A stretch of 64,000 nucleotides of DNA from an uncultured Pseudomonadota bacterium (GTDB taxonomy: Bacteria; Oederibacteriota; Muellerivitia; Muellerivitales; Muellerivitaceae), in assembly GCA_963770835.1 (NCBI GenBank), contig CAVYRH010000003.1, forward strand, positions 96,001 to 160,000. Reading direction: 5' to 3'. Positions 2,370-14,866 of this stretch are shown here, in pieces. The notes under the pieces were generated by a model, which worked only from the letters and a program-made list of their open reading frames with translations, did no database searches and was not told the DNA's origin. Both the position numbers and the translations under genes were made by a program. Numbering within the stretch: position 1 is the first letter of the stretch; every line of letters starts with the position of its first letter.

Positions 2370-5246
2370 ACTTCCTATACCGATCCGGCAGGGAGGTCGT
2401 TCAAATACGCTTATGCGGCCAACGGTATCGACCTGACCAGCGTGACGGATAGCCAAGGCGACCAACTTTGGGCCGGGCAGTACAATTCCATGCATCAGCA
2501 AGTGGTAGTTACGAATGTTGCCGGAAAAAGTTGGCACTATTCCTACAATGGCTTTGGACAGCCGACAGGAATTACGGCTCCTTTAGGTGAAACGACAACT
2601 TTAAATTACGACACTAGTAATCAGCTTTCTTCCCTGATCCCACCCCAGTCCGGGGCTGGTGTGACCTTAGGTTACGATACTCTTGGCCGAGTGCAAAATA
2701 TTAGCAGTGCGGACAAAGGAACGGTTAACTACGCTTACGACGACGGGAACCGTTTGACTCAGGCTAATTACCCGGATGGAACCACTGCCGGGTTAGGATA
2801 TACCAACTGGACCCTGACCAGCGCCCAGGATCGCCTGGGCCAGACTACGAGCTTCAGCTACGATTCCAACCAACGGTTAACGAGCTCGAGAACCCCCAAC
2901 CAACAGACCACTCAATACGGTTGGAGCGCGGGGGGAGGGTTAAGCTCTCTAGCCGATCCAGCTGGAAACCAAACAAGTTATCAACGCGACCTAATGGGGA
3001 GGGTGCTGAACAAAGCTTCTTCCGATGGGTCACAATATTCCTATCGTTATGGTTCCAACGGCGGCATGCTTTCGCAAGTGACTGACCCGTTGGGCCAGGT
3101 GACCCAATATTCACACACCGTGGATGGAAAGATTTTGGGGGTTAATTATCAGAACACCCAAAACCCCACCCCTGGTACTACCTACCAATATGATTCAGTC
3201 TTGGGCAGGGTGGCAACAATGGTGGATGGAACCGGTTATACGACCTATTCCTACAACCCTGTGGGCCAGGTTGGTGGTGGATTGTTGAAATCGGTTGCAA
3301 GCCCCGTTGGCCAAACCACAGCTTTCACCACTTATGCCTACGACAGCGACGGAAGAGTGGTGCAAAGGGCCATTGACGGCGTCCCGGAGACCTATACCTA
3401 TAATTCCCAAGGCCAATTGGTGGAAGTGACCAACCCCCTGGGGGACCCCAAGTTGAGTTATGACTCAAACACGGGAAGGCTGGTTTCGGTGGCCGACAGC
3501 ACAACGGGACAAGCGACCCAATACGAATATTATAATCCTACTGATCCAAACGGGGCTTCAGGACGTTTGAAAAGCATTACCAACTTGAATAAGAGCAACC
3601 AGGCCGTTTCGTCCTTTAATTACTCCTATGACCAGCTTGGACGAATCACCAATTGGGGCCAGAGCCAAGGTGGGACGTCAAAAACCTATGCCGTTGGCTA
3701 CAATCCCGCAAACCAATTGAAGGGGGTGACGATGGTTTCGGGCACCAATGGATTCGATGGCCTCACAGCGGGCCAGGTCGTAAGTTATCAGTACGATAGG
3801 GCGGGAAATCGGGTGTCCGAAAATACTCCCACTTACCAAAATGGTTTTGGCACACCTAACAATCTTAACCAATTGAATCAAGTATCCTCAAACCCCCTGT
3901 CGATGAGCTTGATTACGGATAATTCGCCCGGTGAAGCGGCCCAGATCAATGGCCGGATGGCCCCGATTTCTGGTAATGGCACGGTAGCCTCCAGTATTGT
4001 GCCCAGCGCGAGTAGCACGACAACCAGCGCCGAGGTGGTGCTGACGGAACCCAACGGGGCCACCACCGCTGTGGGTGTAACCCTCCTCAACAAACAGCCC
4101 GTAAGTTTCGATGCCAATGGTAACTGCACTTCTGACAATCAGTACAGTTACGTGAGTGATGGGGTGAACCGGCCCATTGCTATCAATAACGGAAATGTCC
4201 TGCCCGGCGGTACGGCAGACACATTGGTTATGAAATACGACGGTAAAGGGAGGCGGGTGGGACTCACGGCCTTAAATTTGGGTGGGCCGGTGACGAACTT
4301 AAATCAACTTTCAGGTGCAGCCACGGTCTCGGGCAAGACTTATGTGTGGTGTGGGAACAGGATTTGTGAGGAAAGAGACGCAACAGGCAAACAGGTACTC
4401 AAAAGGTTCTTTTCCAACGGCGAGCAAGACAATGGACAAAACCTGTACTATACAAAGGACCATCTGGGAAGTGTTCGTGAGGTGATGGATGCTTCCGGAA
4501 ACATCCAAGGTCAGTTTGATTATGATCCGTGGGGCAGGCAGACCCAAATAGCCGGAACTATGCAGCCTTCGTTTGGCTACACTGGTCATTTTCAGGAACC
4601 GACGACAGGGTTACTGCTTTCCAAATATCGTGTCTATAACGCGGATATGGGAAGGTGGACATCGGGAGACCCAAAAGGGCAGGTCGCGGGAGCAAACATT
4701 TATTCTTATGTCAGGAATAATCCGCTTGGTAAGATTGATCAACTTGGGTTAGATGGTGATGATTACGAATCGTCTGATAACACATCGGATGAAGATACTA
4801 GTGACAATACTGTGGCTGTGGCTGGTGGAATTTTAAAATCATTTGCTGGGGTGGTTGATTTTGTTTATGGAGCGGGTGAAGTTGCTTTGTCATTAGCAGA
4901 TGAGGGAACTACAGCCCCACTTGGTGTTCTTACAATGGGCACGGGTTTTTATGATATGGTGACCGGAGCAATTCAAACGGGCGTCGATCTTGCTGGGAAT
5001 AATTATGTAGTCGATCCGGCAAGTCAACTTTTGGAACAAAAAGGATTTAGAGATTTGGGTCCAATGTTGTGGACCAGTCAGGTAGGGCTAGATGCTCTCC
5101 AAGGTACTACTGGAAATATTATTGGAGGTCTTTTAGATTTTGGAGGAATCAGTTGCGACTATGTGGCATTGCAAACTGGAGCTCAATATTATTGTCCTTT
5201 TTTGGGAACAAGCACCCCTGAAAAAAATCCATGGTATAGACACTAA
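2370..5246 (+). CDS. Rhs/YD-repeat protein with Rhs-associated core and variable C-terminal toxin domain (5' part lost)
   Basis: YD repeats (YDTLGRV, YDSDGRV), core motifs YYTKDHLGSVR, DYDPWG, FGYTGH, NIYSYVRNNPLGKIDQLGL. The frame is open upstream of 2442 (TSYTDPAGRSFKYAY). Confidence 0.93.
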   Translation, partial: TSYTDPAGRSFKYAYAANGIDLTSVTDSQGDQLWAGQYNSMHQQVVVTNVAGKSWHYSYNGFGQPTGITAPLGETTTLNYDTSNQLSSLIPPQSGAGVTLGYDTLGRVQNISSADKGTVNYAYDDGNRLTQANYPDGTTAGLGYTNWTLTSAQDRLGQTTSFSYDSNQRLTSSRTPNQQTTQYGWSAGGGLSSLADPAGNQTSYQRDLMGRVLNKASSDGSQYSYRYGSNGGMLSQVTDPLGQVTQYSHTVDGKILGVNYQNTQNPTPGTTYQYDSVLGRVATMVDGTGYTTYSYNPVGQVGGGLLKSVASPVGQTTAFTTYAYDSDGRVVQRAIDGVPETYTYNSQGQLVEVTNPLGDPKLSYDSNTGRLVSVADSTTGQATQYEYYNPTDPNGASGRLKSITNLNKSNQAVSSFNYSYDQLGRITNWGQSQGGTSKTYAVGYNPANQLKGVTMVSGTNGFDGLTAGQVVSYQYDRAGNRVSENTPTYQNGFGTPNNLNQLNQVSSNPLSMSLITDNSPGEAAQINGRMAPISGNGTVASSIVPSASSTTTSAEVVLTEPNGATTAVGVTLLNKQPVSFDANGNCTSDNQYSYVSDGVNRPIAINNGNVLPGGTADTLVMKYDGKGRRVGLTALNLGGPVTNLNQLSGAATVSGKTYVWCGNRICEERDATGKQVLKRFFSNGEQDNGQNLYYTKDHLGSVREVMDASGNIQGQFDYDPWGRQTQIAGTMQPSFGYTGHFQEPTTGLLLSKYRVYNADMGRWTSGDPKGQVAGANIYSYVRNNPLGKIDQLGLDGDDYESSDNTSDEDTSDNTVAVAGGILKSFAGVVDFVYGAGEVALSLADEGTTAPLGVLTMGTGFYDMVTGAIQTGVDLAGNNYVVDPASQLLEQKGFRDLGPMLWTSQVGLDALQGTTGNIIGGLLDFGGISCDYVALQTGAQYYCPFLGTSTPEKNPWYRH

Positions 5247-5261
5247 CAGCTAGGAGGAGAA

Positions 5262-5513
5262 ATGAATTCTCAGAGATTTTTAAAAGATCTGCTACTTTTA
5301 ATAATCATTCCAGGGAGTATCGGCGCAATAATGTTTTTTTTTAATGAAACAATTGTGAATGCTAGCATGAAATTTGCTTTTTTAATTGACAAGGATAAAA
5401 GAGAACAACATGGGAAAATGCTAAAATTGACTTATAAAAGTGTTGGGTTGGTTTGCATGTGTTTTTCGCTATTGATTCTTTTAATTGTGATTTTCTTGCT
5501 TAAAAAAAATTGA
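5262..5513 (+). CDS. Small two-TM membrane protein, candidate Rhs immunity protein 1
   Basis: AGGAGGAG RBS, immediately after the Rhs stop, two hydrophobic segments, AT-rich. Confidence 0.65.
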   Translation: MNSQRFLKDLLLLIIIPGSIGAIMFFFNETIVNASMKFAFLIDKDKREQHGKMLKLTYKSVGLVCMCFSLLILLIVIFLLKKN

Positions 5514-5552
5514 TTTAACCCGTAATGAAAATTGAATTAAAGGGACGGAAAT

Positions 5553-5762
5553 TTGAATGATTTAACGGCATATTTATTCATATCCATTATTTTAATGGCT
5601 TTGGGTATTTTTGTTTTTTTTGCAACGCGTTTTGTTTTAGATGAAGTTGGGGAAAAATTTAAGAAAAATTCAAAATTAGCAATTGGTCTCACGAATATAG
5701 GAAGTTTTTTACTGGTCTTTTTGGGAGTTTTGTTTTTGCTTAAATATTTTAATCGCATTTGA
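5553..5762 (+). CDS. Small two-TM membrane protein, candidate immunity protein 2
   Basis: Same size class and topology as 5262-5513. Confidence 0.5.
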   Translation: MNDLTAYLFISIILMALGIFVFFATRFVLDEVGEKFKKNSKLAIGLTNIGSFLLVFLGVLFLLKYFNRI

Positions 5763-5767
5763 TTTTA

Positions 5768-6031
5768 ATGAACTACAACGGACTATTGGATAGAAGCATA
5801 GTAGTGATAATTTTTTCAGGTGTCTTGGGGGGGTTATTGTTTTTTATTGCCGAGCCAATGGCGAACTTTGGAAAAAGCTTCTTATTTTTTGATAGATAAG
5901 GAAAAAGAGAAGCGCGTGCAAAAAAATTAGTCAGGGTCACGAAATTCACGGGATTGTTTTTTATGTTTATTTCGTTAATGGATTTTATTTTCCTGCACAT
6001 GCCTGTCGCAAAAAGGATAGTGTGCAACTAA
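5768..6031 (+). pseudogene. Third two-TM immunity-like paralog with an in-frame stop caused by two compensating homopolymer indels
   Basis: MNYNGLLDRSIVVIIFSGVLGGLLFFIAEPMANFGKSFLF. After correcting the homopolymers it reads FLIDKEKREARAKKLVRVTKFTGLFFM, versus FLIDKDKREQHGKMLKLTYKSVGLVCM in paralog 1. Confidence 0.55.
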
Positions 6032-6351: not shown

Positions 6352-6590
6352 TTAGTTAGAAGAACCCGGAGTTTCGCCGAGAAGGTTAGAATTTTTGTCC
6401 AGCGATTGGTTGAGTTGGCTGATCTGGTCGGGTGTCAGTGAATGGCTCTTGTTCTGTTTGAAAAAAGTAAATTCCTGTAAACGGATATTCCTCAAGCTGG
6501 CCCTAACGCTTTGGGCTTGTTCCTTGGAGAATTTTCCGGATTTTACCCCCGTCTGGGTTAATTTCATTTGCGTTTTGACCCGTTGGTTTT
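6352..6590 (-). pseudogene. 3' remnant of an unrelated small protein gene fused to the truncated transposase
   Basis: QRVKTQMKLTQTGVKSGKFSKEQAQ...LTPDQISQLNQSLDKNS looks like real protein sequence but has no own start; lies in a different frame from the transposase. Confidence 0.4.
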
Positions 6591-7115
6591 TTGTTCCACC
6601 ATCGCGTTTCTCAAACGCACCACTTGCCGATCCGCTTCTTCCTGGAGGGTTGGGATCGCCACAGCCCGCAAGAGATCCTTTTCGGCGTACTCCGCCAGCT
6701 TGCGGCAGTCCAACCGGTCGGATTTTGTTTCCAACTGAGCTACACGAGGTGTTTTGTTCGGGGCGATGACGTCCAATGGGTATCCCACTTCCCGAAGGCG
6801 ACGTGCCAAGCCAAAGCCAGTAGGTCCTGCCTCGTAGACGACCTTTTTTAACCCTTTTCGGTAAGGCTCCAGAACCTTCACCACAGCTTCCCAATCCGCG
6901 GGCACAGACTTGGTTCCGGTTTCCTTTCCATTGATCCTGATTGCTACGTAAATACTTCGTTTGTGGACATCGAGCCCCACAAACACGGCGTCCCGCTTGG
7001 ATACCTCCTTGCCTTGGAATCCTTTTTTGCTAATCTGTTTCATGGTCATTCCTCCTTATGAGTGGCTACTCACCGGGAATAGTTTAATCCCGGCGGTGGA
7101 ATGGCCATCATGTTA
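6564..7115 (-). mobile_element. Truncated IS110-family (IS1111-type) element: left end plus N-terminal DEDD/RuvC domain only
   Basis: FVGLDVHK, VVYEAGPTGFGLAR, KSDRLDCRKLA. Sub-terminal inverted repeats at 7042-7052 and 7098-7108 (10/11 match). C-terminal domain absent. Confidence 0.88.
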
Positions 7116-7117
7116 CC

Positions 7118-7145
7118 TGTCCACGACGGGGACCCGTCGTGGACA
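7118..7145 (+). repeat. 28-bp 11-6-11 palindromic site R1
   Basis: TGTCCACGACG GGGACC CGTCGTGGACA. Confidence 0.95.
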
Positions 7146-7215
7146 GGGGGAGAAGTAAAGAATTGTTCACCGTGTGTAAAAAAGAGGATTTGATGACCTA
7201 TTTGGATTTAAAACA

Positions 7216-7740
7216 TTGAAAGCATTTATCATCGTTTTGATGGCTCTATTGGCTGTCAGTGTATTTTGGGAAGTTGCATCGGGGTTCTCTAAAAAACTTT
7301 TGACCAAAGATATGAATAGGATCATACAGTCTGGTTTACGCGTAAATCGCAGTTGGTTCCACCGATTGGAAAGGTTGTTAAATATACCAATCCTTTTTTC
7401 GATATATATTATTCAAATGGAATCGGTCTGGTTCCTTCGTGGGACCATCTACCCCAACCCAATGTCACTCTACCAATGGATTTGGAAACTGGTTACCAGT
7501 CCACCGGATAATCACTCGACCTTAATAGCTTTCTTGATCGCTGTTCCGGCCTTGTTTTCTTCGATCCCCCTTTCAATGGTACTTTTTAATCTGATGGAAT
7601 GGTGTATTCCGCCCCTTCGGAGATTATCTGACGCAAAAACCGGCTTTACCTTTTTGGAAGTCATGTCCCCCATGATCGCTTTAACCCTTTTGATTGTCCC
7701 TGTTTGTTTATTTTTTCAACTGCTAGGCGCTTTGGTTTAA
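7216..7740 (+). CDS. Hypothetical multi-pass membrane protein (unit 1)
   Basis: 174 aa, about four hydrophobic segments, AT-rich, between R1 and R2. Confidence 0.65.
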   Translation: MKAFIIVLMALLAVSVFWEVASGFSKKLLTKDMNRIIQSGLRVNRSWFHRLERLLNIPILFSIYIIQMESVWFLRGTIYPNPMSLYQWIWKLVTSPPDNHSTLIAFLIAVPALFSSIPLSMVLFNLMEWCIPPLRRLSDAKTGFTFLEVMSPMIALTLLIVPVCLFFQLLGALV

Positions 7741-7768
7741 AGATTTAAAATCTGAGGACGAAAAGACT

Positions 7769-7796
7769 TGTCCACGACGGGGACCCATCGTGGACA
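7769..7796 (+). repeat. 28-bp site R2
   Basis: TGTCCACGACG GGGACC CATCGTGGACA. Confidence 0.95.
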
Positions 7797-8033
7797 GGAA
7801 AAAGATTGCAGAAGGCAATTAAATACGAGGAGGGCGGGGGCCAGCAAAGAAACTTTTACGGAGCTTCATTTTGCGGGCCTAGAATCAGAAAATTCGAGAT
7901 TGTGATGGAAGAAGCCGGGGTGCATTGTAAAATGAGAGACAAGTTACCCAGCAACGTTGCCGGAAAAGGTTATCTGGGAAACTCTGGTTAATCCAACTAG
8001 AGTATTTAGAATCCAAATTGAGGGGGTAATTAA

Positions 8034-8393
8034 ATGCGTTATTTGATAAGCATTGTTTTGTTAATTGCAACGACCGGGTGCGGCACCCTATTTAATAGAA
8101 ATCTAAAACCCGTAATGTTGGATTCTGATCCTCAAGGTGCCGATGTCTATGTAGATGGTAATCGTGTCGGTAAAACCCCAATAAATGTCGAGATGGAAAA
8201 AAAGCATTCTGCAAATTTAACTTTTAAAAAAGAAGGGTATGAAGAAAAAACTGCAATAATTCAATCTCAATTAGTGCCAGGTTTATTGATTCTTGATCTC
8301 TTTGGATTAGTTCCTTTAGTGGTTGATGCTGCAACGTCAAATTGGAATGATCTTGATAAAGGAAATCTCAAAGTTTTGCTGGACAAAAAATAG
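8034..8393 (+). CDS. PEGA-domain lipoprotein (unit 2)
   Basis: Lipobox TTGC; SDPQGADVYVDGNRVGKTP is a PEGA signature; GAGGGG RBS. Confidence 0.85.
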   Translation: MRYLISIVLLIATTGCGTLFNRNLKPVMLDSDPQGADVYVDGNRVGKTPINVEMEKKHSANLTFKKEGYEEKTAIIQSQLVPGLLILDLFGLVPLVVDAATSNWNDLDKGNLKVLLDKK

Positions 8394-8460
8394 TTTTGAT
8401 AACAAAGAGTCGAACCTTAAGAAGAACAAACAGGGTTAGACACTTTCCATTTTGTCCGTA

Positions 8461-8503
8461 ACAAAAGAACCCGACTTGGGGATAAGTCGGGTTCTTTTGT
8501 TTT
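8461..8503 (+). terminator. Intrinsic terminator
   Basis: 17-bp stem ACAAAAGAACCCGACTT/AAGTCGGGTTCTTTTGT with T tail. Confidence 0.75.
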
Positions 8504-8533
8504 ACCGTCTTTTTGAAAAACCTATAAATTAGT

Positions 8534-8561
8534 TGTCCACGACAGGGACCCGCCGTGGACA
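8534..8561 (+). repeat. 28-bp site R3
   Basis: TGTCCACGACA GGGACC CGCCGTGGACA. Confidence 0.95.
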
Positions 8562-8676
8562 AAGCAAAATGGATTAGGGTGGCCTGAACCCGATTTTTAA
8601 TAACGATAAGGTAACTTTGCCGGCTGTGTAAGCCGAGTAGATAAATAAAGTTGATAGAATTCAATTGAGGCTGGAA

Positions 8677-9993
8677 ATGGAATCCCCACAGACAAACGCG
8701 CATCCGAAAGCACTCCTGTTTTCGGTCAGGACGCCCAAGGTGACTGATACCGAAGCGATGGAATCAATGATCGAGCTCGAACGGCTGGTGACGACCTTGG
8801 GTTACGAGGTGACCGGAACTATGTCCCAGCGGCAACCCAGCACAAAAGGGGTCACTGTGGTGGGTGAGGGAAAACTGATGGAACTCGCCCAACTCACCGG
8901 TGGAAAGGGCTACCGGGATAGGGTTAAGGGGAACTCCGAAGCGCCAAAACAGGCGCAAGTCCCGGCCTCGACTCCCGATGGACCCGCGATGGTTGTTTTT
9001 GACTGTGATTTGAGCCCGTCCCAGATTCGTAACGTCGAAGAGGCTTTGGGGGTTCCGGTGCTCGATCGAACCGGGGTGATTATCGAAATCTTCAACCGCC
9101 ACGCGAAGACCCGGGCGGCGCGGCTCCAGGTCGATATCGCGCGCCAAACCTATCAGGCTCCCCGTCTCAGGGATATGGGGGTGGGCAAGGAACGCCAGTC
9201 CGGCCGAGGATCCGGGGAAACCGTCATCGAGACGGAAAAGCGCAAAGTCCGCGACCGCCTGGCTGAGCTGAGGCACGAGTTACAAGCGGTTCAAAGGGAA
9301 GAGGAGCAACGCCGGATGAAACGCGCGGAACTGCTCGGCGCCGTGCTCGTGGGCTACACGAATGCCGGAAAATCATCCCTCATGCGGGCGCTGACCGGCA
9401 GCGACGTCCTGGTGGAGGACAAGCTCTTCGCGACCCTGGATACGACGATACGCGCCCTACAACCAGAGACCCAGCCGAGAATCCTGATCACCGATACGGT
9501 GGGTTTTATCCACAAGCTTCCGCACGACCTGGTGGCGTCCTTCCGCTCCACGCTGGATGAGGCCCGCGGCGCCGCCCTGCTTCTTTACGTGGTGGATGCC
9601 GCTGATCGCAACTTTCGTTCCCAGCTCGCGGTGGTTCGGGAAGTTTTGGGTGATATTGGCGCCGACAAAACGCCATATCTTCTCATTCTCAATAAGGCCG
9701 ACTGCTTGAGCGAATGGCAGAAGCAGGTTCTCAGGGCGGAGTATCCGGACGCGGTTTTAACCTCGACCCGCAGTCCCGAGGACATGCGGGGCGTTAGTGA
9801 ACGCATTATTCATTTTTTCGAGAAAGACATGATTGAAAAGGAGATTCTCGTTCCCTATAAAGCCCAAGGCGTCATCAGCGAAATGCGTTTGAATATGAAA
9901 ATCTTGAGGGAGAGTTTTGTTGAAGAAGGCGTTCTGCTTCTTGTTCGCGCCCGTCCGATTGACCTTCAGCGCTTGAGTAAAATGATGAAATAG
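8677..9993 (+). CDS. hflX: GTPase HflX (unit 3)
   Basis: LVGYTNAGKSSL, DKLFATLDTT, TDTVGFIHKLPHDLVASFRSTL, NKAD. Confidence 0.93.
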   Translation: MESPQTNAHPKALLFSVRTPKVTDTEAMESMIELERLVTTLGYEVTGTMSQRQPSTKGVTVVGEGKLMELAQLTGGKGYRDRVKGNSEAPKQAQVPASTPDGPAMVVFDCDLSPSQIRNVEEALGVPVLDRTGVIIEIFNRHAKTRAARLQVDIARQTYQAPRLRDMGVGKERQSGRGSGETVIETEKRKVRDRLAELRHELQAVQREEEQRRMKRAELLGAVLVGYTNAGKSSLMRALTGSDVLVEDKLFATLDTTIRALQPETQPRILITDTVGFIHKLPHDLVASFRSTLDEARGAALLLYVVDAADRNFRSQLAVVREVLGDIGADKTPYLLILNKADCLSEWQKQVLRAEYPDAVLTSTRSPEDMRGVSERIIHFFEKDMIEKEILVPYKAQGVISEMRLNMKILRESFVEEGVLLLVRARPIDLQRLSKMMK

Positions 9994-10054
9994 TGCCCTG
10001 CGGTGTGTCCCGGACGGGCCCGCAAGCTCGGCCGATAAGAAATTGTCCACGACG

Positions 10055-11995
10055 GTGCGTCCAGAAAAGGCAGGTGTGTTCAGCAAGAGATAGTCTTGCA
10101 TGGGTAATAGCCAAAGCCCATTAGCTAGGATGGCAGGCAAGCGGGAAACCAAATGCCTGAAGCCCATCAACAAAGCCATCGAAAGGATGGTGAGCGAGTC
10201 GTCGGGCCGTAACGAAAGTAAATGCACAGGTGGCCCCGAAAACACTTGCCTCGGAGGCTGAGTCCGCCGTCGTGGGACGAAAGCATCATGGGACAGCGCG
10301 GAGAAATGGCTGAAGCGCTGGAACACTCCGACGGGGTGATAGCAACGGCACGAAGACAAGGACACGCCAAGCAACTGGAGAAACCCTCCTTGCCCCAGGC
10401 AGAAATGCTTGGAGAAAGGTAGGCCGTATAACCGTGACGCGGGAAAACGGTCGAAGGTGAGAGGGTTTAGGATGGGTTCATGGTAGCGATGAAGCGGGGT
10501 AATGCCCGTGGAGCGAAGGAACCCTGCTGTTGTTAAGTCCCTCGACAAAACGGAAGGCAGTGACGGTATGAAAAAGACGTCAATTAACCTGCAAGACCTG
10601 AGACGAGAGATATACGTCAAAGCGAAGGCTGAAAAGAACTGGAGTTTCTGGGGACTGTACACCCATGTTTGCAAGATGGAAACGCTTCAACAGGCTTACC
10701 GAATGGCTAAGGTAAATAACGGAGCCCCTGGAATAGATGGGGTGACGTTTGATGCCATTGAGGAGGCCGGAGTGGAGTCGTTTCTGGAAAGCATCCGGGG
10801 TGAATTAGTTCAAGGCACGTATAAGCCCGTTCGAAACCGGAAGAAGGAAATACCCAAGGGAAATGGGAAGGTAAGAGTCCTTGGGATACCCAACATTCGG
10901 GATAGAGTAGTCCAGGGAGCACTGAAGTTTATTCTGGAACCGATTTTTGAGGCCGATTTTCAAGAAGGGTCCTATGGGTATCGACCCAAGCGGACCGCTC
11001 ATGCGGCTGTGAACAGGGTAGCATCGGCAATCGTCTGTAGAAAAACCCGAGTCATTGATGTAGACCTCAAGGCATATTTCGACACGGTAAGGCACGACCT
11101 TCTGATGAAGAAAGTTGCCCGAAGGGTTGAGGATGAAACGGTGTTGAGATTGTTGAGGATGATCCTGAAGGCCAGCGGCAAAAGAGGAGTCCCGCAGGGA
11201 GGGGTTATTTCCCCTCTTCTGGCTAATCTCTACCTCAACGAGGTGGATAAGATGCTGGAAAAGGCAAAAGAAGTGACTCGGCAAGGGAAGAACAACTATA
11301 TCGAATATGCGAGGTTCGCTGACGATATGGTGATCCTTGTTAATGGATATCCGCAATGGGAATGGTTGGCAAAGGCTGCCTACCGAAGGTTACTTGAAGA
11401 ATTGACCAAGCTCGACTTGCAAATCAACACGGACAAGACGCGGATAGCAGACTTAACGAAAGGTGAAAGTTTCGGGTTTCTGGGGTTTGACTTTCGACAG
11501 GTGAAAACCCGTCGAGGGAAATGGGGGGTGAAGTTCACGCCGAAAATGAAGGCGCGAGCAACACTTCTGGGTAAGCTCAAGGAAACATTTGGAAGCTTCC
11601 AATCTCAGCCGGTGCAGAGGGTGATTGAGATTATCAATCCCAAACTGCGTGGGTGGGTGAATTACTTTCGGATAGGGAATTCTAGGCGCTGTTTTAACTA
11701 CGTGGAAAGATGGGTCGAGAATAAAATCAGACGGCATATGATGCGTGCGAAGAAGCTCGACGGTTTTGGGCGGGATAGGTGGAGTAGGGAGTGGATATAT
11801 AAGTATCTGGGGTTGTACAGAAGCTACCAAATACGATATTACCAAGAACCGAAAGCGCTACCCGTCTGATAGGTCACATAAACTTTGACAGGAAAGCAAC
11901 AGGTGAGCGTAGTGCGGGAAATCCGCACGCTACGTTCGAGGAGGCGGGGACTGGAAACGGAGCCAGAAGGCCACCGCACCAGTCCTCGACCCTAC
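10055..11995 (+). mobile_element. Full-length group II intron (tentatively bacterial class E-like)
   Basis: 5' GTGCG; domain V GAGCGTAGTGCGGGAAATCCGCACGCTACGTTC; domain VI ending CGACCCTAC; exon joining restores the repeat exactly. Confidence 0.93.
10568..11869 (+). CDS. ltrA: Group II intron reverse transcriptase/maturase, no HNH endonuclease domain
   Basis: GAPGIDG, RVLGIPNIRDRVVQ, SYGYRP, GVPQGGVISPLLAN, YARFADD, LRGWVNYF. Confidence 0.95.
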   Translation: MKKTSINLQDLRREIYVKAKAEKNWSFWGLYTHVCKMETLQQAYRMAKVNNGAPGIDGVTFDAIEEAGVESFLESIRGELVQGTYKPVRNRKKEIPKGNGKVRVLGIPNIRDRVVQGALKFILEPIFEADFQEGSYGYRPKRTAHAAVNRVASAIVCRKTRVIDVDLKAYFDTVRHDLLMKKVARRVEDETVLRLLRMILKASGKRGVPQGGVISPLLANLYLNEVDKMLEKAKEVTRQGKNNYIEYARFADDMVILVNGYPQWEWLAKAAYRRLLEELTKLDLQINTDKTRIADLTKGESFGFLGFDFRQVKTRRGKWGVKFTPKMKARATLLGKLKETFGSFQSQPVQRVIEIINPKLRGWVNYFRIGNSRRCFNYVERWVENKIRRHMMRAKKLDGFGRDRWSREWIYKYLGLYRSYQIRYYQEPKALPV

Positions 11996-12053
11996 GGGAC
12001 CTGTCGTGGACAAAAAAATAAGGCGGAAGATACTATTCAAGTGGAGGAAGGGA

Positions 12054-14234
12054 ATGATGATGATCGGATTCAGATTACTCATGGATATGGCAAAGGGACA
12101 CCGGTATTGGATGTCCGCGGCGGCCCTTTTCGGCCTCGTGCCGCCCTTAGGGGCCGCGACCTACTATGTCTCCCCTTCCGGGAATGATGCCGGTCCCGGA
12201 AGCCAAACCCAACCCTTCGCCTCCCCGCAAACCGCCGTCACTCACCTGGCGCCCGGCGACACCCTGGTGTTCCGGCAAGGGACTTACTACGGTTCCATTA
12301 TTGTCCCCCAATCCGGATCAGCCGCATCCCCCATCACCCTGGAAGCCTATCCGGGTGAAACGCCGCTACTCGACGGCGCCGGTCCCGTCACCGGTGCTTG
12401 GAGCCATTACCAGAGTTCCATTTACCGCGCCCCTTGGGCTTCCCAGCCCGCCCAGGTTTTCTGTGACGGCCACCTTCTGAATGAAGCCCGCTGGCCCGCC
12501 GCCGAGGTGGAGGGCCTCAGCCACCAACCCGTGGCCCTCGCTGACTCGGGGTCGGCCAGCCAGGTCACCTGCGCCAATCTTCCCCGGGTGGACCTGACCG
12601 GCGCCCTCATCCAGCTCATGGCGGGCCAATCCTGGTGCTCCTATACCCGTACCATCGTTTCCCATGACCGGCCTAGGGGCTCCCTGGTTTTTGATTCCCC
12701 GGTGAGCGAAATGGCAGCCTTGGTGCCGCGCCGGGGAACCCGTTTCTACGTCTTCGGCAAACTCAACCTCTTAACCGCGCCGGGGGAGTGGTATTGGGAC
12801 CCGCAAAAAAAAGAACTTTACGCCTGGACCCCGGATGGCGCCCCGCCCCAAGGCCGCGTGGAGGCCGGGGACGCTTCCCCGGTCCTGTCCCTGGACGGAC
12901 AGTCTTATATCACGGTCAAGGGGCTGCAGGCCCGGGGCGGATGGTTTTCCCTTTCCAACAGTTCCCATTGCACCGTCCAGGATTGCCGCCTTATCGCCCC
13001 CAATTGGACGAGAATGATGAATGGTTACGTCACCAAACCCGCGACCCTGGGCGGCATCGACATTTCCGGCGCCGACAACCAATGCCTGGGCGGGTCGGTG
13101 GTCTTCGCGGGGCGCAGCGGCGTCGATCTTTCCGGCGGAAGCGGCCACCTGGTCAAGGGCATGAACGTGGAGGATTGCGGCTGGAACTGGGGCAATGACG
13201 GGGGCATCCACGTGATCCACGCCGACCAGTGCGTTGTCCAATCCTGTACCGTCCGGCGGGTGGCCCGGGTGGGCATCTTCGACTATTACTCCACCTCCTG
13301 CCGGTTCCTCAACAACCTAGTCGAGGACGTCTGCCTTTACAGCGACGACGTGGGCAATTTCGACTCTTGGGGCACGGACGGCAAGGGCAGTGAAATCGCC
13401 TACAACCTCATGCGCGGCAACCGCGGCATGTGGGGCGCGGGCATCTACCTGGACGACAACGCCAAGGGCTTCAATGTCCACGACAACGTGGTCGAGGATT
13501 GCGCCTGGTACGGCTTTAAATTCAGCGATGTGGATAGGCTCGAAAACAACACCGCGTTAGGTCCGGGCCACGGGGCCCTTTACTGCTCCCAGCCCGCGAG
13601 CAAGGACCTGACCGGCTCCAAGGTGGCCCATAACCGGTTCCGGGAAACCTTCCCGGTGCGGGTCAACTTCAACCAGGCCTCGGTCACCGATTATGGTTAC
13701 TACGGGGGCTACGCCTACCTGGGCGCCCCCGGCCGCGTGGAGGTGGATTGGGGCCAATTGGAACAGCCTTGGTGGGCGGTAAAGGTTCCGCTCGACTTAA
13801 CCCAGATCCCTACCATCGCCTTCAGCATTGAATGCCTGGCCGACTCCTTTACCTTCACGGTGGCCAATTTGCGGCTCCTGCCCAAGGGCCTAAAGGGGGA
13901 TGACGGCGCCGTGACCCTGGCGGGAAACTGGTTTTCCTACGCCGGGCAGGGCGCTACCTCCACCTTGAGCCTTTCGGGTCCGGCGACCTGGGGCGCGACC
14001 GGAAAAACCGTCGTGGGCGGCTGGAACTCCACCGGCCTTCCCCTCACCGGCAGCCAGAGGGACCTGACCGCCTACCGGGGACTCGCCTTTGAGATCGGCG
14101 GAACCGCCGTGATGAAATACAACCTGAATGGATGCGTCGACGAGGATAACGGCCCCGATCCCAAGCCGGGCCGGGGCGCCAGCCTGCCCATCACCGTGGG
14201 GGCCGAAGGGTTAAGGGTCGGGCCGGTCCCCTAA
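12054..14234 (+). CDS. Secreted right-handed beta-helix protein with probable C-terminal carbohydrate-binding region (unit 4)
   Basis: TYYVSPSGNDAGPGSQTQPF, PGEWYWD, GIYLDD; markedly GC-rich. Confidence 0.8.
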   Translation: MMMIGFRLLMDMAKGHRYWMSAAALFGLVPPLGAATYYVSPSGNDAGPGSQTQPFASPQTAVTHLAPGDTLVFRQGTYYGSIIVPQSGSAASPITLEAYPGETPLLDGAGPVTGAWSHYQSSIYRAPWASQPAQVFCDGHLLNEARWPAAEVEGLSHQPVALADSGSASQVTCANLPRVDLTGALIQLMAGQSWCSYTRTIVSHDRPRGSLVFDSPVSEMAALVPRRGTRFYVFGKLNLLTAPGEWYWDPQKKELYAWTPDGAPPQGRVEAGDASPVLSLDGQSYITVKGLQARGGWFSLSNSSHCTVQDCRLIAPNWTRMMNGYVTKPATLGGIDISGADNQCLGGSVVFAGRSGVDLSGGSGHLVKGMNVEDCGWNWGNDGGIHVIHADQCVVQSCTVRRVARVGIFDYYSTSCRFLNNLVEDVCLYSDDVGNFDSWGTDGKGSEIAYNLMRGNRGMWGAGIYLDDNAKGFNVHDNVVEDCAWYGFKFSDVDRLENNTALGPGHGALYCSQPASKDLTGSKVAHNRFRETFPVRVNFNQASVTDYGYYGGYAYLGAPGRVEVDWGQLEQPWWAVKVPLDLTQIPTIAFSIECLADSFTFTVANLRLLPKGLKGDDGAVTLAGNWFSYAGQGATSTLSLSGPATWGATGKTVVGGWNSTGLPLTGSQRDLTAYRGLAFEIGGTAVMKYNLNGCVDEDNGPDPKPGRGASLPITVGAEGLRVGPVP

Positions 14235-14337
14235 ACGGTTCTTTTCAAATAGCTGGCATATCCTCTTTCAATGAGCCCCCTCAATTCCAAGGGAGTTTGA
14301 GGAGAACTAGGGGGGAAGGCTGGCAGCCAATTTGGCT

Positions 14338-14365
14338 TGTCCACGACGGGGACCCGCATTGGACA
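14338..14365 (+). repeat. 28-bp site R5
   Basis: TGTCCACGACG GGGACC CGCATTGGACA. Confidence 0.9.
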
Positions 14366-14415
14366 AAGAAAAAGGCTCAATAACACCACCCAATATGAAA
14401 GGGATTATTTTGTGA

Positions 14416-14820
14416 ATGAAGTATTTAAAAAAATATAAAAAATACCTCCTAAATTCGATGGAATTTCTTATGCCGTTAATAGAATTTGGCGATTTTATTA
14501 CAGCCGCCGACCAGGATGGTTTCGCTATCAGCGCTATCGAAGGAAGGGAAAAAGCCTTGTTTAGTAAAAAACATCATTTTCGATCTGACATGTATATTAT
14601 TTTTTTGCCTAAGAAAAAGAACCCAGGTTGGGAGAACTTCAAGAACCATTGCAATATAAATGCGGAGAGATGGTATTCGAAGATGATAAAGAAAAGATTT
14701 ATTTTGGGTAATCCCCTACCGATAAATGCAACAAAACGAATTTTAATTTGTTCGTGTTTAGTGGATAAAGCGCAATGGATGAAGGATTATCGAAAGAAAC
14801 GCATTAAGACAATAACTTGA
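14416..14820 (+). CDS. Hypothetical basic protein (unit 5)
   Basis: 134-aa, very AT-rich ORF filling the R5-R6 interval. Confidence 0.55.
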   Translation: MKYLKKYKKYLLNSMEFLMPLIEFGDFITAADQDGFAISAIEGREKALFSKKHHFRSDMYIIFLPKKKNPGWENFKNHCNINAERWYSKMIKKRFILGNPLPINATKRILICSCLVDKAQWMKDYRKKRIKTIT

Positions 14821-14838
14821 GAACTGATAGCGAACTGT

Positions 14839-14866
14839 TGTCCACGATGGGGAGCCGCCGTGGACA
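14839..14866 (+). repeat. 28-bp site R6 (array end)
   Basis: TGTCCACGATG GGGAGC CGCCGTGGACA. Confidence 0.9.

Follow-up and report, generated by a model that had tools for sequence, protein, structure and literature searches.

Evidence for a gene-cassette exchange system built on a 28-bp site in the FCPU426 family, with a short serine recombinase as its candidate enzyme

The window analysed here, a stretch of 64,000 nt from an uncultured soil bacterium (positions 96,001-160,000 of contig CAVYRH010000003.1 in assembly GCA_963770835.1, genome code G000, 96% complete), contains an array of gene cassettes delimited by six copies of a 28-bp site, all on the same strand (Table 1). Five copies are intact, with 0-3 mismatches in their arms and no match in 100 shuffled controls, and the sixth is split by a group II intron, the sole match in an Rfam scan of the window. 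No further copy of this 28-mer lies within the 64 kb, even at up to 8 mismatches. The intervals between sites measure 651, 765, 1510, 2353 (with the intron removed) and 501 bp, and each holds an unrelated gene on the + strand: Pfam recognises a PEGA-domain protein, HflX and a beta-helix protein, together with the reverse transcriptase (RT)/maturase of the intron, and assigns no family to open reading frames (ORFs) of 174 and 134 aa. Base composition switches between units, with a GC content of 40, 38, 56, 62 and 35% in cassettes 1 to 5. An initial annotation, made from the letters of the window, had described the array in these terms and is borne out, as is the centre GGGACC that it gave for five of the six sites. 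Its description of the site as an 11-6-11 element holds only in part: there are inverted arms around an asymmetric centre, but as read from the sequence the arms are 13 bp long and the asymmetry is confined to a central GA, so that the architecture is 13-GA-13.

Capture and shuffling of gene cassettes is known from integrons and from Xer/dif modules, both of which rely on tyrosine recombinases. We consider it highly probable that the 28-mer marks a real, family-wide system of site-specific cassette exchange. A weight-matrix scan of G000 gave 89 hits above threshold and none in the reversed genome; 88 of these were kept and, with ten intron-split and four variant copies, make up a set of 102 sites. 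A genome-wide scan for clustering or dispersal had been named beforehand as a refuting test, and the sites proved to fall into 34 clusters with 66 of 68 neighbouring pairs in the same orientation. In 64 of 66 units the longest ORF has the same strand as the site; units have a median length of 1019 bp, and leaders are short (median 52 bp to the first ORF). Among the 67 of 95 cassette ORFs that were scanned (mobile-element and likely spurious ORFs were omitted) the cargo is mixed, comprising toxin-antitoxin pairs, acetyltransferases, transporters, secreted proteins, cas1-cas2 and many orphans; on the same set PADLOC recognised only Cas1, Cas2 and one helix-turn-helix protein, a result that gives no sign of defence-gene enrichment. 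The site recurs, near-identical in sequence, in 28 of 31 genomes of the FCPU426 family and in 15 of its 17 genera. A strict pattern found it in none of 68 other genomes of candidate phylum FCPU426, and a looser one gave a single copy, in G025 from the sister family. The viral contigs and plasmids searched contained no match, and a scan of wider genome collections returned at least 155 matching stretches, titled FCPU426, Firestonebacteria or nameless bacteria among the matches listed.

Within G000 one unit occurs in several arrays beside different neighbours, and identity on the unshared side stops 0-3 bp from the site. Over its last 529 bp the PEGA unit of the window is found unchanged in G004, a member of another genus, where a different cassette comes next. 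The HflX unit is 85-92% identical in G004, G015, G011 and G001; of the 12 hflX loci examined, ten are flanked by a site on one or both sides, and the sequences beyond the sites showed no mutual similarity. The gene is accessory in the family: 10 of 31 genomes have it above cut-off, in most cases next to cassette sites. Breakpoints in the compared loci fall inside the 28-mer, in agreement with the earlier expectation that units are gained, lost and reordered exactly at the sites.

The crossover was mapped with 611 distinct sites from many genomes, using pairs at least 97% identical over at least 150 bp on one side only; these pairs are mutually dependent, and left-side linkage is looser than right-side. 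Nineteen pairs with a common downstream unit have 13 mismatches at positions 1-11 and none at positions 12-28, where about 66 are expected. Fourteen pairs with a common upstream unit have 7 mismatches at positions 1-13, against about 20 expected; there are 29 at positions 16-28 and none at 14-15. Position 11 moves with the upstream unit in the PEGA pair, and positions 16-17 with the downstream unit in one pair. The mismatch pattern and these two linkages together place the exchange point at positions 12-15, and on these genome comparisons units are shown to move between arrays and between genera. The central GA is present in 579 of the 611 sites; the outer five bases and the centre are conserved, positions 12-15 are almost invariant and positions 19-22 are free. 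The right arms of last and single sites are more degenerate than those of inner sites (p approximately 0.002-0.003), and first sites are no different. The 28-mer folds as a hairpin, and a folded single-strand substrate was considered and rejected: compensatory changes in the arms number 33 against 37.2 ± 5.3 in shuffled sites (array form) and 21 against 19.8 ± 3.8 (circle form), and this lack of covariation argues against such a substrate. A role as terminator or promoter was also rejected, the scans being at chance level.

Clustering of 1419 site-near proteins brought out a serine-recombinase family located just past the last site of several arrays. G000 encodes one protein with domains PF00239 and PF07508, of 275 aa and without zinc ribbon or coiled coil; its gene lies on contig C17 (12078-12905), faces the array and ends with a stop codon 14 bp from a site. 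The short proteins, 19 in number and 275-283 aa long, form one clade (SH-aLRT 99 in a quick tree) in which the catalytic motifs, the serine nucleophile domain and the recombinase domain are kept and the sequence stops just before the zinc ribbon, and the structure model (pLDDT 77, pTM 0.48) matches those of serine integrases, Bxb1 and phiC31 included. All ten short-clade loci that include the 3′ end (from seven genomes) have a site there, 8-36 bp from the stop codon in nine and at the same position behind a frameshifted copy in the tenth; the probability that a given point has a site within 36 bp is about 0.0008. None of four full-length relatives has an adjoining site. Among 106 related metagenome and viral loci, the two short-clade members, both from metagenomes, are each followed by a variant site at 9 bp from the stop codon (one of these sites is cut by the contig end), and the remaining 104 loci have no site. 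The gene stands tail-to-tail at the downstream end of its array, often with ArdC/RadC-type genes behind it, and in G000 the 7-kb block that bears it has an ordinary site at both ends. As a separate observation, a conserved non-coding stretch of about 260 bp lies behind the short recombinase gene (the G000:C17:10790-11050 region; also G043 and G024) and is present twice in the G000 block. Sites beside the enzyme often have a distinct right arm, and the promoter scan was at chance level. Short proteins with PF00239 and PF07508 occur in other lineages as well, and this architecture is not new in itself. We regard the short serine recombinase as the best candidate for the enzyme of the cassette system, an assignment that is unproven and that we hold to be probable.

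According to the model that we favour, a cassette would consist of the right half of one site, one or two same-strand genes and the left half of the next site. A dimer of the short serine recombinase would bind each site, cut around the central GA and swap the halves, with the asymmetric GA setting orientation. Because there is no directionality module, any two like sites could recombine, and cassettes would be excised as circles that could insert again wherever a site is present. Since the 7-kb block of G000 lies between two sites, the enzyme may also be gained and lost in the form of a large cassette. The window array, which has no enzyme of its own, would be served in trans; clustering and the breakpoints inside sites support what the initial annotation proposed, namely exchange of cassettes by a system that has a site of its own and an enzyme in trans. 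Two group II introns and one IS110 element use the 28-mer as target.

Features shared with the large serine integrases (LI, Bxb1 and phiC31) are the PF00239 and PF07508 domains and their fold, an asymmetric central dinucleotide, which sets polarity in Bxb1 (PMC3642061), and a 13-bp half-site whose most conserved bases lie 9-13 bp from the centre (PMC3783163; PMC3642061). In LI integrase, 13 bp are covered by the recombinase domain, which reads the bases at 9-11 from the centre; the zinc domain reads further out, and removal of the coiled coil yields an unregulated resolvase (PMC3783163). By analogy, the conservation of the 28-mer would fit serine-integrase chemistry. Unlike these integrases, which recombine one attP with one attB of 38-50 bp and carry phage cargo, the short enzyme is without zinc ribbon and coiled coil and is associated with about 100 like sites of one class and a cargo of gene cassettes. 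The outer bases of the 28-mer may resemble those of site I of the Tn3/gamma-delta resolvases, a likeness for which no confirmation was found. Site I is a dimer-binding crossover site of 28 bp, cut near its centre by a serine recombinase (PMC2602789), as the 28-mer would be, whereas here no accessory sites II/III were seen (no in-depth search was made), the enzyme has 275 aa with PF07508, and the sites are arrayed.

Several observations weigh against the short serine recombinase as the enzyme. Engineered loss of the zinc and coiled-coil domains harms binding and integration (PMC3783163). The short clade is intact in only five of the 31 family genomes, with remnants in two more, and five genomes with 16-43 sites each (G002, G012, G023, G041 and G018) have no PF00239 match; one of these, G023, holds an 829-bp cassette that is about 99% identical in G004. 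Incomplete assemblies together with a mobile enzyme would explain this gap, and a different enzyme would do so too. In four of the five intact loci no closing site was found behind the enzyme within the 8-20 kb examined. Most sites are directed away from the origin (in G004 the orientation flips across dnaA and across a dif-like site; there are exceptions in G014), a bias that a serine recombinase does not require and that may be ordinary gene-strand bias. As positions 12-15 are almost invariant, a cut at GA is indistinguishable from a cut at the 11|12 bond. Finally, four sequencing runs yielded no excised circle, back-joint, joint between two cassette sites or empty junction, in a search confined to contigs that gives no measure of absence; some contigs of these runs begin at a site with foreign flanks.

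The alternative that best withstands the data is that the system is real and is operated by another enzyme present in every genome, the short serine recombinase being a mobile-element enzyme that uses the site as a landing pad. The patchiness of the short clade and its absence from the five site-rich genomes, the ArdC, RadC-like and antidote genes behind it, the three other parasites that target the 28-mer and the replication-biased orientation of the sites would all suit such an arrangement. However, no other recombinase family recurs beside the arrays among the clustered site-near proteins, an enzyme able to insert the G000 block, with an ordinary site at each end, could move cassettes too, and half of the attC-site clusters devoid of integron-integrases (CALINs) are likewise in genomes without an integrase (PMC4889954). 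We judge this alternative to be unlikely.

The initial annotation had likened the site to core sites of tyrosine recombinases such as dif, a reading that the data do not support. Twelve tyrosine-recombinase hits are present in G000, none of them IntI; none is of XerC/XerD strength, which is also the case in G004, G006 and G025. The family and its sister family appear to be without XerC/XerD and to have one Xer-like recombinase instead. This Xer-like protein (G000:C11:156014-157117) could in principle act on 11-6-11 sites as XerC/D do at pdif. Its distribution fits, with an orthologue of 54-83% identity in 23 of 24 family relatives and in one sister-family genome, the same clade as the site, while other families have just XerC/D-like proteins of about 30% identity; moreover, the mapped exchange interval includes the 11|12 bond. 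It was set aside once a dif-like palindrome of its own was found: directly before the start codon, in G000 and in the orthologues L165-L188, lies an AT-rich 11-6-11 palindrome unrelated in sequence to the 28-mer, whose arms vary between genomes yet stay symmetric, as in the single-Xer systems XerS and XerH a site next to the gene's own start, and an inverted repeat of about 40 bp lies on both sides of the gene. The 2-4 kb loci around the gene contain no cassette site, the match of clades is a single phylogenetic coincidence, and one recent exchange joined sites that differ at spacer positions 16-17 (a single observation), inside the supposed 6-bp overlap of a tyrosine recombinase. The pdif modules of Acinetobacter are similar in that 28-bp sites bound small mobile gene modules with crossover within the site, but these sites alternate in orientation, so that modules lie between inverted copies, and have XerC and XerD arms and varied spacers, whereas the sites here are direct and GC-rich with one centre, and their arms are unlike those in the published pdif table (PMC13141974). 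We regard the Xer-like protein as an improbable cassette enzyme. Nor does anything point to the loss of a recombinase at the left edge of the array, as had been proposed; the DNA there consists of a remnant of IS110 fused to a small gene that is truncated. G000 also has six paralogous integrases, each of about 370 aa and 55-80% identical to one another, on C1, C2, C5, C10 and C26. As candidates for the cassette enzyme they were rejected, three being beside tRNA genes in G000 and one in an island-like block in G004; one lies 0.7 kb from a site, which is taken as co-location in variable regions.

Very improbable, and largely refuted already, is a repetitive extragenic palindromic (REP)-like or selfish repeat beside which gene content changes by other means. 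About 100 copies per genome, many of them single, and the hairpin fold would be expected of such a repeat, and some G000 duplications could stem from a separate 37-bp repeat system. Against it, clusters keep a single orientation with one gene per interval, exchange maps inside the site, and the site is near-identical across 15 of 17 genera; unlike REP elements and their transposases, the 28-mer is neither in mixed orientation nor paired around a Y1 transposase, since none of 11 Y1 hits has paired flanking sites except one IS200 inside a cassette. Least probable of all is a degenerate integron or CALIN in which the 28-mer is a minimal attC hairpin recombined as a single strand by IntI in trans: the array logic, short leaders, many toxin-antitoxin cassettes, intron and insertion-sequence parasites and strand bias are the same, but no IntI is over cut-off in G000 (TIGR02249, best 44.6 bits against 265), and the site, as the initial annotation had held in denying that it is attC, has 28 bp, no ends of the GTT/AAC type found in attC and no compensatory arm changes. 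That the array is not CRISPR also stands, with a median unit of 1019 bp in G000 and no short regular spacers.

The likeness to sedentary integrons and CALINs nevertheless extends to cassettes in one orientation, mostly with a single gene and a short leader, placed between direct sites, to arrays far from the enzyme or in enzyme-free genomes, to toxin-antitoxin cassettes, and to sites targeted by group II introns and IS110-family elements (PMC4889954). What differs is that here there is no IntI, attC structure or arm covariation, that a 28-bp site is exchanged near its centre, that the candidate enzyme is a serine recombinase placed tail-to-tail at the downstream end, and that no attI or cassette promoter was identified. 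The system thus works in an integron-like manner, yet the features that define integrons, pdif modules and REP systems were not found, and the directionality module of the large serine integrases is absent. We lean, if only slightly, towards regarding it as a second, independent invention of the integron, in which a family-wide cassette library, spread over dozens of arrays, is worked in trans through one class of 28-bp site by a serine recombinase that is short by nature, whose directionality module has been lost, and that is itself mobile. A literature search, with subscription journals and supplements outside its scope, found no description of such a system, only of integrons, pdif modules and serine integrases, and the available part of preprint 10.1101/2024.07.02.601686 contains none either. 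If this interpretation is right, the cassette strategy arose again with a different chemistry, to whose serine version attC-based tools are blind, and an enzyme of 275 aa with a 28-bp site would provide a compact recombination tool and a natural test of the roles of zinc ribbon and coiled coil. The system supplies whole functions to the lineage, hflX being an example.

Table 1. Coordinates of the cassette array and its left flank, numbered from the first letter of the window.
Feature	Position	Strand	Remarks
IS110-family 5′ remnant	6588..7117	-	end adjoins site 1
Site 1	7118..7145	+	perfect consensus, 13-GA-13
Cassette 1 gene, 174-aa hydrophobic ORF	7216..7740	+	no family; best Atlas match 0.82, a lead only
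Site 2	7769..7796	+	28-mer match
Insertion-sequence remnant in cassette 2	7844..7990	+	resembles (about 74%) the end of an insertion sequence that carries a transposase (DDE_Tnp_1_4)
Cassette 2 gene, PEGA-domain protein	8034..8393	+	Pfam
Site 3	8534..8561	+	rare A at position 11, travels with cassette 2
Cassette 3 gene, HflX	8665..9993	+	sole hflX found in the G000 assembly
Site 4, left 11 bp (intron 5′ exon)	10044..10054	+	part of the 28-mer
Group II intron in site 4	10055..11995	+	1941 nt; RT/maturase ORF 10502-11869
Site 4, remaining 17 bp	11996..12012	+	part of the 28-mer
Cassette 4 gene, right-handed beta-helix protein	12054..14234	+	Pfam; unit 62% GC
Site 5	14338..14365	+	28-mer match
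Cassette 5 ORF, 134 aa	14416..14820	+	no family, no relative among the fetched loci; may not be a real gene
Site 6, array end	14839..14866	+	centre GGGAGC; followed by a convergent O-antigen ligase gene

The intron in site 4 has 12 copies in G000, ten of them at the same bond of a 28-mer and two (C26:594362 and C5:342182) inside an insertion sequence, where the left arm of the site is partly matched. Complements of that arm are present in the window copy at 10268-10273 and 10291-10295, the candidate exon-binding sites EBS1 and EBS2; the position of the intron therefore reflects RNA pairing and is uninformative on the crossover. With site 4 interrupted, the HflX and beta-helix cassettes would be movable only as one block. 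A second family of group II introns (G000:C11:109925-110725 and 17 other places) is inserted 2 nt beyond the 28-mer in 16 of its 18 copies. Its members are mostly ORF-less and about 800 nt long, sometimes with an IS110-type transposase, and some sites hold both introns. For the IS110 element itself, four of five junctions in G000 adjoin a site edge, and the remnant in the window is a passenger outside the mechanism.

A further repeat of 37 bp, resembling a CRISPR repeat, occurs in the window at 5992-6028 (+), with 27 copies on C3, C15 and C16 of G000, co-oriented with the sites. The first copy comes after a cas1-cas2 unit, which has a 28-bp site at its own start (three full copies, one with a stop codon). 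Between these repeats lie 0.2-4 kb of DNA that usually begins inside a gene and frequently duplicates sequence from elsewhere in the genome, such as cas1 and the Rhs gene of the window; part of the Rhs region is duplicated behind a 37-bp repeat at C3:61839. The repeat is present in six of the 31 family genomes, and in G043 one copy marks the precise point at which a serine recombinase is truncated. The arrangement resembles insertion of kilobase pieces by Cas1-Cas2, for which no matching paper was found in the literature searched, and the repeat with its cas1-cas2 is separate from the cassette system. Behind the Rhs-repeat protein come several short, AT-rich ORFs for membrane proteins that may be immunity genes (window 2442-5960). 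Just upstream of the Rhs ORF, at 1310-2334, about 1 kb of poly-T and then poly-A forms the only such tract in the assembly and is most likely an assembly artefact.

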